Made by a program: the position numbers and the translations under genes. Below, in pieces: positions 19,501 to 27,915 of a DNA stretch of 38,262 bases (positions are counted from its first letter, which is position 1; each line of letters starts with the position of its first letter). The notes under the pieces were generated by a model. The model worked only from the letters and a program-made list of their open reading frames with translations. It did no database searches and was not told where the DNA came from. Origin of the DNA: Candidatus Omnitrophota bacterium (lineage in GTDB: Bacteria; Omnitrophota; Gorgyraeia; Gygaellales; Profunditerraquicolaceae); assembly GCA_028715095.1 (NCBI GenBank), contig JAQUSM010000001.1, positions 1 through 38,262 of the forward strand. The letters are read 5' to 3'.

Positions 19501-22500
19501 TTACTGGGCGTAAAGATGCTTCCTGTATGGCTACGCATGAAGCTGCAAAGGCAGTTCCTTGAGCACTTCAAGTATGCTTTTAGTCAATTGCGGCCGGATC
19601 AATCTTCCACGATACTGGCAGCTATGATCAGGAATATGGTTCTTAATGGGCGCGTAGAGGCAAGAGACCTTGACCTTTTAACCACGCTATCCGAACGCAG
19701 CGAGGCCGTGAACACGGTGTTTTTCTGTAGAGAATTGCGAAAAATTGGCTATGAAATCGACAAATCCGATTATTTCACTTATGGAGATTTTCGCTTTATT
19801 CATAAATTAGCACAGCAACCCGGCATAACGGCTTTTTTGCGTAAGTTAAGAAGCTACGGTTTTATCCTGCGCGATGATTTTGGCGCTAAGATCGGGATGC
19901 TAAGGAGCATATTTGAGAATAGGGCGGAGTATTTTCCAAAAATCGAAGCGATACGCTCTGTGCTGCCGGATTTTAAATACCGGCCTCTACTTGAAGATCT
20001 TAGCCCGGCTTCGGTGTTAATTTCTTTCTTGGAGAAATATCCCAGCAGGGCAGTTAGTATGATGAGTAACCTGGAAGGTGTGCTCGCGGCAGTTAACCCG
20101 GAAGCTGTTCCTTACGCGGAAAAAATCAGGGAAGTTTGCGCGACTTTAAATTATCCGGCTTTTCTTGTAAACAGTTTTCTTAACGGTTCGCTTAATGAAT
20201 TATTGCAAAAATTCACAGGAACGGATGATTTCCTGCGCTTTATGTTGACTGAAAACATTCCCGAAGCGGATTTTAAGAAGGAATTTATCTTGTTTTTAGC
20301 AGGCTACACACGTGCCACTCAAAGCCAATTTGACATTTTGATAGAAACATTCCGCTCTACCCTTAATAACCCCCAGCAGTCTGCGCAGATCGCCGATATT
20401 ATAGGGAGCTGGTTTTCCAGCGCTGATACTACTTTTTCTCTGCCGCGGGATGTCAGCACGGCAATGAAAAACATCTCCTCCGGCAATATGGATAACAGCG
20501 ATCTAATGCACGTACTTGCCAATTACCTTGCCATAAGCAAGGCTTTACAGCAGGAGGGGATGCAACGCAGCATTGCTTATAAAGATGTTTTGGAGTTGAT
20601 AAAGAAACGGTCAAACGGCGCCACCGTGTTTGAGGATATCCCCGAAGAGCACACGCGTAATATAGAAGGGCTGGTGTATGAGGCGATTATTATTTGGAAT
20701 AAGCTTTTGGAAATAGAGCGCGCCGGAAAAAAACAGATAGTAGTCGCGAACTTGTCTTACGGAGGAGTGGCGGTTACTCCGATCACCGAAGAAAGAAACA
20801 ACCAGGCGTATATCGTAGCCACGCAGATACCCGTATGGTATACAAAAGTCGGCTCTACTCCCGCGCACAATAATGAATACGTGCTGGTCCCTGGTTTATT
20901 CACCCCTAACCAGATAAAGTTTTTGATTGAAGAAAAGCCTTATGTTTCGGTGGTTGACGGCAGCACGTCCGTAGCCGCATCCGACAGGAGTTCTCCGCAT
21001 ATCCCGGATGCCTTTAAGGGTTACCGTAACTATTTTATTGTTTTAAACCACGCGCTTGGCGAAACATTCGACCCGAAAGACTTTGACGTGGATGAGGAAT
21101 TCGTGAATGGATTATTGGCTACCGCGGAAGCCCAGGAGCTCATTAAAAAGATACAAATCCTGGCAATTAAGCCCCGCGCTCCCAATGGCTATAAATTCGG
21201 CTTTTCCTATGAGCGCAAAGCGGATTCAGAAAAAAGCGAATTCTTGTATTTACGCGAAAGCAAAAAAGAAGCCGCAGAAGCCAAGAAACTGAATATCAAT
21301 GAGGCCCTCAAACAAAATAATCCCTTCTGTATATTCCACCAGTCTGGAGTCCATCCTAATGATGTTGATAGCGAATTGATGCCTGAAAAATACCAGCCGT
21401 GTTTTTTTGATGATAAGGACCATTTTAAACAATTTTATCTTGATTACGAAGACGGCTACGGCGTTGTGCTTTCCAAGCGTTACGCCTACGCGGCAAGGGA
21501 GTTATTCAGGAGATTCATGCTGCAAAAAGGCGTGGATGTTATGTCCGGCCGTTTTACTACCGATTCCATCCGCCCGATAGATACGTTAGTCCTGGATTTG
21601 GACGGTACGCTTACTGAAGCCGTAGGAGGAAATATAGAAAACGGAACAGCAAATATCATTAATTACCTGTTAAAGAAAGGCGTAAGAATAATTATTATCA
21701 CGGATGACGTTAAGGCGAATGTTGAAAAAAGGATCGCGAAATTAGACAAATCCCCCAATCTGGTTGTTTTTACCGACGGCGGGGCAAGGGCGGATGGAGG
21801 CGTATTTGAGCAATACAACGCAAAAAACATAATCAGCCCTGATTTAAGAGAGAAGATTTTAAATATGGCCCGGGCGAACTTCCCGTTCGGCGCATGGAAA
21901 GAGGGGGAGAACGATTCTCCCTACCGGATTCAAATAACGGATATACAGGAGAGGACAAATTTTATTGAGCGTTTTCAGGATTTACTTGATAAAGAAGGTA
22001 TTGAGGCCAAAGTATACAAAGTCGGAAAGAATTCAGCCCGCGTTACCCTTGCCCACAAAGAAGTGGCCTTCACGGAAGCTATCAAAACCTTTAATCTTGA
22101 TGTGTCCAAATCGCTGATTATCGCGGATTCAGCCAGGTCTTACCGTATTGACCGCAAACTCTTAACTGATTTTCCCGAAAGCGTAAGCGTTAATATCGGC
22201 AAGTTTTCGCCCAGTATTGAAAAAGATAACCAGAGAATCGTTCAATATGCCGGCCAAGGTACCGCTGCTACAAAGATGCTTTTATCCAGCGTGGCGTTCA
22301 GAGGCGGGCTGCCGCAACGCCTGCTGATATCTTTCGTGCAAAGCCAGCCTTTGGAATATGCTGAGGCTGCCAGTTCACTTACCAATGCTGTCGAATCCGC
22401 CGGTTCGGCGCTGGAGGAGGTAAATCCTCAAAAGATCTCGGCGGCGCTGGGAAAAATGGAAAAGCAGGCTGTTGGCGAAAGAGAAATATACGGTTTAGCC

Positions 22501-27915: not shown

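Follow-up and report, generated by a model that had tools for sequence, protein, structure and literature searches.

The 38,262 nt stretch of Candidatus Omnitrophota DNA analysed here (the window; contig JAQUSM010000001.1) carries all of its genes on the forward strand, in the order gyrB, a gene for a DUF7847 membrane protein, gyrA, glmS, rsmI, a 20.5 kb open reading frame (ORF), pyrR, pyrB, pyrC, carB, fpg, pyrK, pyrD and the start of pyrF. A first-pass annotation, made from the sequence alone, had picked out four modules of cytoplasmic type towards the 3' end of the giant ORF, namely a HAD phosphatase, a CAP-type cyclic nucleotide (cNMP)-binding domain, an HD phosphohydrolase and a GT9-like glycosyltransferase, in a protein that begins with a secretion signal. 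We find these modules to be one cargo combination of a combinatorial protein family, in which a signal peptide and a conserved head precede variable cargo and a conserved tail ends the polypeptide. The tension between the signal peptide and the cytoplasm-type modules is real, and recurs across the whole of this family.

Residue numbers are counted throughout from the start of the ORF at position 7408; the ATG at 7480 is likely to be the true start, yielding MKIKTIRSFKIIAIILSFLLIFEQSGFAQ, a classical signal peptide. The G+C content and GC skew of the ORF match those of the neighbouring genes. It is a real ORF, since a 7,391-residue ortholog (P0007, 81% identical) exists in an independent Omnitrophota metagenome-assembled genome (MAG; JBAZUE010000002, locus L003), where it is likewise followed by pyrR-pyrB-pyrC. 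The c-region of the signal peptide (EQSGFAQ, then VAGxLDIS) is conserved, in the window and at all of the loci L011-L050, well past what signal peptidase I needs, and this extra conservation suggests recognition by a dedicated factor. The features of the ORF are collected in Table 1; related proteins are designated by P numbers and genomic loci by L numbers.

Table 1. Features of the giant ORF, with positions in the window and residues counted from 7408.
Feature	Position	Strand	Remarks
Giant ORF	7408..27915	+	6,835 residues, no interrupting stop; between rsmI and pyrR, housekeeping neighbourhood
Sec-type signal peptide	7480..7566	+	MKIKTIRSFK-IIAIILSFLLIF-EQSGFA/Q; nearly invariant in the head-cargo-tail family, including c-region EQSGFAQ
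Head domain	7567..8610	+	residues ~54-400, ending Y.SGGLDL (8518-8541); defines the family
H1, weakly hydrophobic, signal-peptide-like	13750..13827	+	residues 2118-2134; RRKGIIISLATVLSLKILGPSKALAQ
H2, most hydrophobic segment of the protein	17158..17229	+	residues 3253-3271; preceded by twin-arginine (Tat)-like NRRTFLG; conserved in ortholog
H3, marginally hydrophobic	17671..17766	+	residues 3422-3440; followed by a +5 cluster (KPWFARRFARALK)
Uncharacterised alpha/beta partner domain	20413..21552	+	residues 4336-4715; motifs NLSYG, TKVGST, VDGSTSV, PHIPDAFKGYRNY, FFDDKDHF
HAD-IIB (Cof-type) phosphatase module	21553..22332	+	motif I D4730/D4732, II T4765, III K4884, IV D4907...D4915
Linker motif [AV][GS]S[SA][LP] at module boundaries	22399..22413 and others	+	7 copies, starting at residues 2066, 3224, 4998, 5527, 5745, 6494, 6695 (nt 13603, 17077, 22399, 23986, 24640, 26887, 27490)
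CAP-type cyclic-nucleotide-binding domain	22528..22917	+	phosphate-binding cassette 22741-22800
HD-superfamily phosphohydrolase, phosphodiesterase-like motif order	22918..23907	+	YHNPYH from 23071, HD from 23191, HE from 23248, ADLY from 23542
'Mid' module	23998..24657	+	residues 5531-5750; ~52% identity to P0009 and P0012
GT9-like glycosyltransferase module, putatively of GT-B fold	24658..25692	+	N-half LGE (24802-24840); C-half TIDSGIFH (25444-25485)
Lineage-specific region between GT9 and tail	25693..27474	+	with HExxH motif (26464-26490)
Tail domain	27475..27912	+	starts GGIDMRSL (27520-27543); C-terminal end of protein

The four module families were borne out where they had been placed. 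When the protein was scanned against Pfam in two halves, HD alone exceeded its threshold; with isolated segments all four were seen, as Hydrolase_3 (E=4.5e-6, 27.0 bits against a gathering threshold of 20.9, residues 4727-4910), cNMP_binding (E=1.2e-6, 28.8 bits against 27.5, a narrow margin, residues 5073-5153), HD (E=3.3e-6, 27.8 bits against 22, residues 5258-5329) and Glyco_transf_9 (E=2.2e-4, 21.1 bits, just under the threshold of 22, residues 5929-6024), the last of these being backed by a homolog and a family profile described below. NCBIfam independently matched Cof-type HAD-IIB (5.4e-6), CRP (6.4e-6), HDIG (1.5e-3) and heptosyltransferase I (TIGR02193, 2.1e-6), as well as heptosyltransferase III. 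We assign superfamily membership only, because all of the NCBIfam scores fall far under the equivalog cut-offs. The corresponding motifs lie at 21592-21612 (LDLDGTL), 22741-22800 (GNYVGEIG...RTATV), 23191-23220 (YLHDIGY) and 25444-25485 (TIDSGIFH).

Relatives of the part of the protein carrying the cNMP, HD and GT9 modules were elusive: a word-indexed search of 5.8 billion proteins returned none even at E<=10, and searches of the PDB with single module sequences using phmmer gave nothing usable, so that family profiles were required. An exhaustive HMMER search of 1.84 billion representative proteins recovered 53 relatives of residues 5030-6090 that the word-indexed search had missed. Only the ortholog P0007 among these 1.84 billion covers cNMP, HD and GT9 together, and the combination is hence as unusual in one polypeptide as had been proposed. 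Scanning of species-representative genomes placed more distant relatives in Omnitrophota and Elusimicrobiota.

When the giant protein was compared over its full length with the 53 relatives, many of them proved to share its first ~400 and last ~140 residues and to differ in between. The order is head, partner plus HAD, mid, GT9 and tail in P0009; head, GT9 and tail in both P0011 and the 1,454-residue P0013; and head, HD and tail in P0025, whilst P0056 has the head, a GT9 module and a NUDIX domain before a C-terminal GGIN variant of the tail. A profile of the head identified at least 525 confirmed relatives on metagenome contigs, often several per genome. Among 80 loci that were fetched, 45 complete ORFs have a head and a length of at least 600 residues, and 43 of these terminate exactly in the tail, either of the type found in the window or in a shorter GGIDLNP... 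variant; the smallest members, at 620-680 residues, are barely more than head and tail. The tail always starts with GG[IV]D[FLM], and the head ends with Y.SGG[IL]D. As these alignments have it, the plan of the family is a Sec signal peptide and ~350-residue head, then variable cargo, then a ~140-residue tail starting GGID. Every named relative is annotated as a hypothetical protein.

The cargo is diverse. Pfam scans of 38 cargo regions detected phosphoglycerate kinase (PGK; E=1e-122), triosephosphate isomerase (TIM), glucose-6-phosphate isomerase and phosphoglucomutase (PGM), along with ROK and ABC1 kinases, CheB methylesterase, GT1, DnaJ, metallophosphoesterase, GNAT, HTH, MraZ and M48 domains. 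The ORFs at L048 (9830-18856), L057 (783-5855) and L085 (9965-15505) contain full-length PGK (363-410 bits), part of TIM, or PGM core domains I-III: L057 is a head-PGK-tail protein, L085 is a head-PGM-tail protein, and L048 carries PGK/TIM. A linker motif (Table 1) occurs at module boundaries seven times in the giant protein, against 0.37 copies expected, and 38 times against 6.7 expected across the family. Since head and tail are shared by proteins with differing cargo, the four-module stretch of the window is one cargo combination of a combinatorial family, whose modules the comparison indicates to be shuffled independently. The modules do occur together as annotated, but they represent one draw from this family and not a designed unit. 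Such combinations may have arisen through shuffling of cassettes at the junctions.

Neither the head nor the tail could be connected to known domains: sequence searches of Pfam, NCBIfam and the PDB gave no match for the head and, for the tail, none in Pfam or NCBIfam and none from the PDB that was accepted. A hit of the tail to a designed PPR repeat protein in the PDB was an artefact summed from ten tiny repeat matches, and a resemblance of the head to the alpha-pore-forming toxins NheA, SmhA and ClyA was noise (Foldseek probability <0.1, TM ~0.1). A literature search on the GGIDL motif found nothing relevant.

The HAD module lies where it was annotated, but the conserved unit to which it belongs begins ~380 residues further upstream, as relatives P0001-P0003 (1,400-1,570 residues, found by word-indexed search) match residues 4336-4975, comprising HAD and the partner domain before it. 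This partner is directly upstream of the same type of HAD in nearly all homologs long enough to show it, the exceptions being a second partner copy in the ortholog and the copy at L006, neither of which is followed by a HAD. The phosphatase motifs are well preserved: both aspartates of motif I (DLDGT, residues 4730-4734), T4765, K4884 and D4907/D4915 are invariant in an alignment of the four homologs reaching the HAD, with an atypical motif IV spacing (D-x7-D). An AF2 structural model of the partner and HAD together (mean pLDDT 73.8) matched, in Foldseek at probability 1.0 and E-values of 2e-8 to 1e-6, the HAD-IIB phosphatases and relatives PfHAD1, ISN1 IMP nucleotidase, T6PP, SPP and PMM. The model thus indicates a Cof-type phosphatase with a Rossmannoid core and C2B cap, and a predicted intact active site. 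HAD matches dominate this list, and the partner domain itself has no match in Pfam, NCBIfam or the PDB, the last including a profile search, nor any detectable similarity to a glycosyltransferase; VVDGSTSV might be read as PRPP-loop-like. An HAD-IIB phosphatase directly downstream of a larger alpha/beta domain recalls the synthase-phosphatase fusions of trehalose-6-phosphate, sucrose-6-phosphate and mannosyl-3-phosphoglycerate metabolism, but the upstream domain here has no detectable resemblance to any glycosyltransferase, PDB or Pfam entry, and the analogy may serve as a lead and not as a result.

A distant homolog of the partner and HAD unit, P0002, is found at L001 (14782-24617) between type IV pilus/type II secretion system genes and a lipopolysaccharide (LPS)-core block composed of a GT9 gene, a PfkB kinase gene, KdsB, KdsA, KdsD, KdsC, LpxL and LptC/A/B. 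This context was considered as an explanation for the window cassette and dropped: the GT9-like module of the window has no pairwise similarity to the standalone GT9 near P0002, the window has no LPS genes, and other homologs lie in other contexts.

Downstream of the HAD, GEIGAGSSNRLRTA aligns with the GELGLFEEGQERSA of CRP, with ten residues from the glutamate to the arginine in both, and the key Gly-Glu and Arg-Thr-Ala residues kept. The alignment thus identifies a cNMP-binding domain of CAP type, whose GE...RTA cassette is intact and which is predicted to bind its ligand.

The HD module that follows is matched on its own by around 30 of the 53 relatives, including standalone proteins of 240-400 residues, and some standalone HD and GT9 homologs have signal peptides of their own. 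In an alignment of 16 HD sequences, nine of which match PF01966, H5224 and H5228 (YHNxxH), D5267, H5284, D5383 and E5398 are invariant, and H5266 and E5285 are conserved in at least 90%; the metal ligands H5228, D5267 and D5383, with the nearly invariant H5266, are hence in place. Searching the PDB with a profile of the family gave 57 matches at E<=10, of which ~50 were class I cyclic-nucleotide phosphodiesterases (PDEs), including Leishmania PDEB1, T. cruzi PDE, PDE5, PDE6 and PDE10. These alignments are anchored at YHNxxH...HD and again at the helix preceding the last aspartate. With YHNPYH at residues 5223-5228, HD at 5266-5267 and the final aspartate at 5383, the ligand spacings are 38 and 116 residues; those of PDE4D are 36 and 117.

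The module therefore resembles the class I PDEs (PDE4/5/6/10 and trypanosomatid PDEB1) in the order and near-equal spacing of YHNxxH, HD and final aspartate, and also in having a cyclic-nucleotide-binding regulatory domain N-terminal to the catalytic one, as the GAF domains are in PDE2/5/6. It differs from them in that the second histidine of the PDE HDxxH motif is a tyrosine (HDIGY), that PDEase_I is not matched, and that the regulatory domain is of CAP and not GAF type. Because of the HDIGY sequence, the missing PDEase_I match and the weak PDB E-values, the module is classed as PDE-like and not as a member of the PDEs, a likeness that the profile matches indicate weakly but consistently. An HD-domain diiron oxygenase, to which weak PhnZ and TmpB matches might have pointed, was rejected as the second histidine pair of those enzymes is absent from the invariant set. 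The cNMP and PDE-like HD domains plausibly form a cyclic-nucleotide sensor/hydrolase pair, which fits this part of the protein better than the ligand-regulated phosphatase that had been suggested, and a PDE-like HD beside a cNMP-binding domain would be an unusual bacterial cyclic-nucleotide module.

The fourth module is matched by 17 relatives over residues ~5760-6095, and that of P0013, at 39% identity, passes the Pfam GT9 gathering threshold with 27.3 bits. A GT9 family profile of 16 sequences retrieved only GT9 structures from the PDB (WaaF 1psw at E=5.5e-7; WaaC at 0.018). TIDSGIFH aligns with the TNDSGLMH of these structures, such that the conserved D6017 (TIDSG) is equivalent to D261 of WaaC. 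The likeness to WaaC/WaaF covers the C-terminal Rossmann half, including DSG..H and the preceding strand and helix, with an N-half of matching length. On the other side, the score is far under equivalog thresholds, the N-half catalytic Asp13 is replaced by glutamate (LGE), there is no conserved lysine equivalent to Lys192 of WaaC in the family alignment, and WaaC and WaaF are cytoplasmic enzymes of ~350 residues, whilst the module here sits within a signal-peptide protein, in a window that has no LPS genes. These comparisons support GT9 membership at the level of fold, with a putative nucleotide-sugar-binding half of heptosyltransferase type. Together, the HAD with its partner and the GT9-like module may act on sugar-phosphate and nucleotide-sugar substrates.

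The lineage-specific region after the GT9-like module is absent from P0008, P0009 and P0013, in which the tail directly follows GT9. Two HExxH motifs, ILHEVGHGFE (9178-9207) and ILHELTHVH (26464-26490), lie in regions of the giant protein with no family assignment; they may mark zincin-like peptidase modules, possibly relevant to processing. At residues ~2165-2400 (13900-14600) there are helical repeats of ~35 residues (xxYAxxIIExAAxxxPxxALxYSxxY), HEAT/ARM-like in look, with no Pfam match.

Relative to the ortholog, the ratio of non-synonymous to synonymous divergence (dN/dS) is 0.05-0.18 in the four modules, showing them, in this pairwise comparison, to be under purifying selection with catalytic and ligand-binding residues kept. 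Synonymous divergence (dS) from L003 is uneven: ~0.3 in pyrR, pyrB and pyrC, ~1 over residues 3371-5020 (17518-22467) and 0.05-0.16 over residues 5021-6370 (22468-26517). Such a mosaic suggests that the giant gene has recently undergone intragenic recombination or an exchange of alleles. In the ortholog the partner domain is also present a second time (L003 2255-4021, ORF residues 716-1304), as a copy that is 64% identical to residues 4123-4710 of the window protein, has no HAD and lies directly upstream of H1. The ortholog lacks residues 2967-3220 (16306-17070), a module of ~255 residues (AYFYHGTSS...) that in the window is located between two RRxF(L/F)G motifs. Hence uneven dS, an extra partner copy and a missing module all suggest that the giant gene is being reshaped by recombination.

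Outside the giant ORF, Rfam detected two tRNA genes (RF00005), one following gyrA (4624-4698) and one following the ORF at 30934-32172 (32198-32269). All other Rfam families fell short of threshold throughout the window, the pyrR leader region included. That leader region contains a terminator-like hairpin at ~28115-28150. Directly 3' of the stop codon of the giant gene, at 27915-28010, is a long inverted repeat (AAAAGGGGCGCTTA ... TAAGCGTCCCTTTTTATTT), probably an intrinsic terminator, the loop of which would be unusually large.

The side of the membrane on which the cassette works depends on the hydrophobic segments, which were analysed using Kyte-Doolittle values, a summed biological hydrophobicity scale and flanking charges. 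The helices annotated at 17155-17720 correspond to H2 and H3, as located by the hydrophobicity scan. No topology fits all of the segments, and the flanking charges contradict every simple model. Either H2 alone or H1, H2 and H3 together as spanning segments would put the cassette in the cytoplasm, and a hairpin of H2 and H3 would put it on the side of the head. Two internal Tat-like twin-arginine motifs are present, of which DRREFLGLG (16231-16257) has no hydrophobic region after it and the second precedes H2; NRRTFLGILGLGGLAVLLGL (17158-17229) has the look of a complete Tat/Sec signal, lying 3,250 residues inside the protein. By the hydrophobicity scale, P0009, P0011, P0013, P0025, P0030, P0043, L057 and L085 have no transmembrane (TM)-like segment besides the signal peptide, and concealed membrane helices hence do not resolve the tension between export signal and cargo. 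A single strongly hydrophobic segment in the interior was seen in ~10 of roughly 49 complete ORFs, L048 among them.

Both scenarios put forward with the first-pass annotation, tethering to the envelope and delivery into another cell, are compatible with the sequence. We put the chance that the cargo is exported at about even, that it lies on the cytoplasmic face slightly lower, and that it is placed in some other way as small. Export is favoured because many members of the family have no TM segment, and the cargo would then, at even chance, leave the cytoplasm of the producing cell behind the signal peptide and head. The near-invariant signal peptide and the signal peptides of some standalone HD and GT9 homologs also speak for export. 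Paralogs with no TM segment contain the tail and these modules too, and the ortholog has a partner domain upstream of H1; both facts likewise favour a position on the side of the head. Exported cargo might act at the surface of the cell or else within a host or prey, in which its substrates exist, with H2 and H3 in the present protein serving as a membrane hairpin anchor. Omnitrophota are described as host-dependent or predatory and as having giant surface proteins. The fullest form of this idea would be that head-cargo-tail proteins are a modular export or delivery platform of host-dependent Omnitrophota, placing cytoplasmic enzymes (PGK/TIM/PGM, NUDIX, a cNMP sensor with PDE-like hydrolase, sugar-phosphate phosphatases, GT9-like transferases) on or within the cells of a host or prey. 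The GG- and serine-rich junctions would be both points of recombination for cargo exchange and sites of proteolytic release, and the cNMP and PDE-like pair would sense or destroy the cyclic-nucleotide signals of the target cell. So complete a scheme is speculative, and we consider it unlikely.

Several observations weigh against this proposal. The cytoplasm is the only place where ATP, cNMPs, sugar phosphates and ADP-heptose-type donors are known to occur, and no delivery machinery was identified. H2 exceeds the signal peptide in hydrophobicity and is a possible single stop-transfer anchor, keeping the cassette cytoplasmic; the positive charges after H3 favour a cytoplasmic C-terminal side; and L048 has a single hydrophobic segment (residue 878) between the head and PGK/TIM. 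The AF2 model of the head is of low confidence (pLDDT 59), reaching moderate confidence only at residues ~90-350, and has no significant match. As for individual modules, the PDE-likeness rests on PDB profile E-values of 0.03-0.05, with no PF00233 (PDEase_I) match in any of the 16 HD members at E<=10, and the position of the WaaC catalytic aspartate is occupied by D, E or other residues across the family.

The strongest competitor, which we regard as a serious possibility though short of an even chance, has the cassette tethered at the cytoplasmic face: the N-terminal ~3,200 residues would be exported, H2 would act as stop-transfer, and the C-terminal 3,500 residues (partner, HAD, cNMP, HD, GT9 and tail) would stay at the cytoplasmic side of the inner membrane, linking an extracytoplasmic part to cNMP-regulated enzymes. 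Such a location is favoured because of the logic of the substrates and the precedent of L048, every recognisable module downstream of H2 using cytoplasmic ligands; H2, as the most hydrophobic 17-19-mer of the protein, is stronger still in the ortholog, the +5 cluster after H3 suits the orientation, and the distant partner and HAD homolog adjoins a standalone GT9 gene and Kdo/LPS-core genes. However, P0009, P0011 and P0013, close paralogs with the same GT9 at 77% identity, the HAD unit and the tail, have no TM-like segment, and L057 carries PGK with no TM, implying that such modules can lie on the side of the head. Furthermore, H2 has a twin arginine on its N-terminal side and an acidic stretch on its C-terminal side, flanks that predict the reverse orientation (N-in, C-out), and the second partner copy of the ortholog, upstream of H1-H2, would put the same domain type on both sides of the membrane.

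Compatible with either location, and also unlikely in our estimation, would be a polyprotein cut at serine-rich and GG junctions (AGS[SA]L..., GGID...) into separate enzymes. The linker motif is at module boundaries far more often than by chance, the head ends SGG[IL]D and the tail starts GGID, the internal signal-peptide-like H1 and H2 have AxA-like ends, and peptidase domains of the C39 (double-glycine) and S8 types are reportedly frequent in the giant proteins of Omnitrophota. Yet no protease domain was detected in the giant protein, and the junction motif, which is absent from the distant homologs of the HAD unit, could be a mere flexible linker or recombination scar. Less probable by some way is decay, in which case catalytically dead modules would serve a giant surface protein as structural filler or as scaffolds for binding. 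Their profile scores are marginal, with NCBIfam values all far under equivalog cut-offs, the GT9 catalytic aspartate is not conserved and the motif IV spacing of the HAD is unusual; against this, decay is disfavoured because of the low dN/dS in the modules, metal-binding, nucleophile and phosphate-binding cassette residues are invariant across homologs of 25-40% identity, and the PGK cargo of relatives gives the high bit scores noted above. Finally, fusion of separate genes by mis-assembly or missed stops, as the internal signal-peptide-like segments might suggest, can be practically dismissed given a 20.5 kb frame with no stop, an ortholog with the same synteny in an independent MAG, and a head-to-tail rule holding in 43 of 45 ORFs from many samples.

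Among known systems, the MARTX toxins of Vibrio and relatives are similar in logic to the head-cargo-tail proteins. They are likewise large and secreted, with conserved N- and C-terminal regions around variable, strain-specific effectors of cytoplasmic type; recombination shuffles these effectors, linkers keep them apart, and cleavage sets them free once they have been delivered to the target cell. The two differ in that the window family has an N-terminal Sec signal, that no glycine-rich A/B/C repeats, cysteine protease domain (by Pfam), type I secretion signal or context was found here, and that there is no similarity of sequence or fold.

Two catalogues of giant proteins are closer relatives of the present case. 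In West-Roberts et al. 2023 (bioRxiv 10.1101/2023.11.21.568195), 'Archaeovorin'-type Omnitrophota giants of >30,000 residues have glycosyltransferases, methyltransferases and NUDIX domains and many TM regions, with predicted localisations that 'seem highly unlikely'; Nielsen & Lui 2026 (bioRxiv 10.64898/2026.06.07.730766) describe 916 proteins of at least 10,000 residues, including a 'multi-enzyme metabolic cluster' class, with HAD and HD among the recurrent families, and topologies of 39% signal peptide plus TM and 9% signal peptide only. The window protein shares with both the phylum, a signal peptide with few TM segments, very divergent domains, and families of cytoplasmic type (HAD, HD, glycosyltransferases, PGM, ROK, GNAT, NUDIX) on one polypeptide, with the same problem of localisation. 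It differs in size, its 6.8 thousand residues lying under both thresholds (>=10,000 and >=30,000), and in having no SecA-DEAD, C39 or dockerin domain. With 6,835 residues and no more than three or four hydrophobic segments, and matching no SecA family in Pfam, it is not an 'Archaeovorin'.

Term searches of 10.64898/2026.06.07.730766 found neither cNMP-binding nor GT9 families, and the head and tail scaffold, GGID junctions, partner and HAD unit, PDE-like HD and cNMP pair and GT9-like cargo are not described in the sections consulted of either paper. Hence the novelty originally supposed holds for the exact combination, which is essentially unique, but not for the general phenomenon of long multi-enzyme signal-peptide proteins in Omnitrophota, which these sources make already known (10.1101/2023.11.21.568195; 10.64898/2026.06.07.730766); the head-cargo-tail family itself is apparently undescribed in them. 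The giant proteins of this phylum have been widely noted and are not functionally understood, and both surveys end in the same puzzle, namely that enzymes dependent on ATP, nucleotides or sugar nucleotides have a predicted location outside the cell. Should the cargo stay inside, some other reason must be sought for the near-invariance of the signal peptide; if it is exported or delivered, the family would constitute a new type of bacterial effector platform. That puzzle is now tied to a defined, abundant and much smaller family with a recognisable head, tail and junction motif, for which the head and tail profiles provide a handle for cataloguing cargo in metagenomes. Some of its members carry a single well-understood enzyme, such as PGK, making the question of localisation experimentally tractable.

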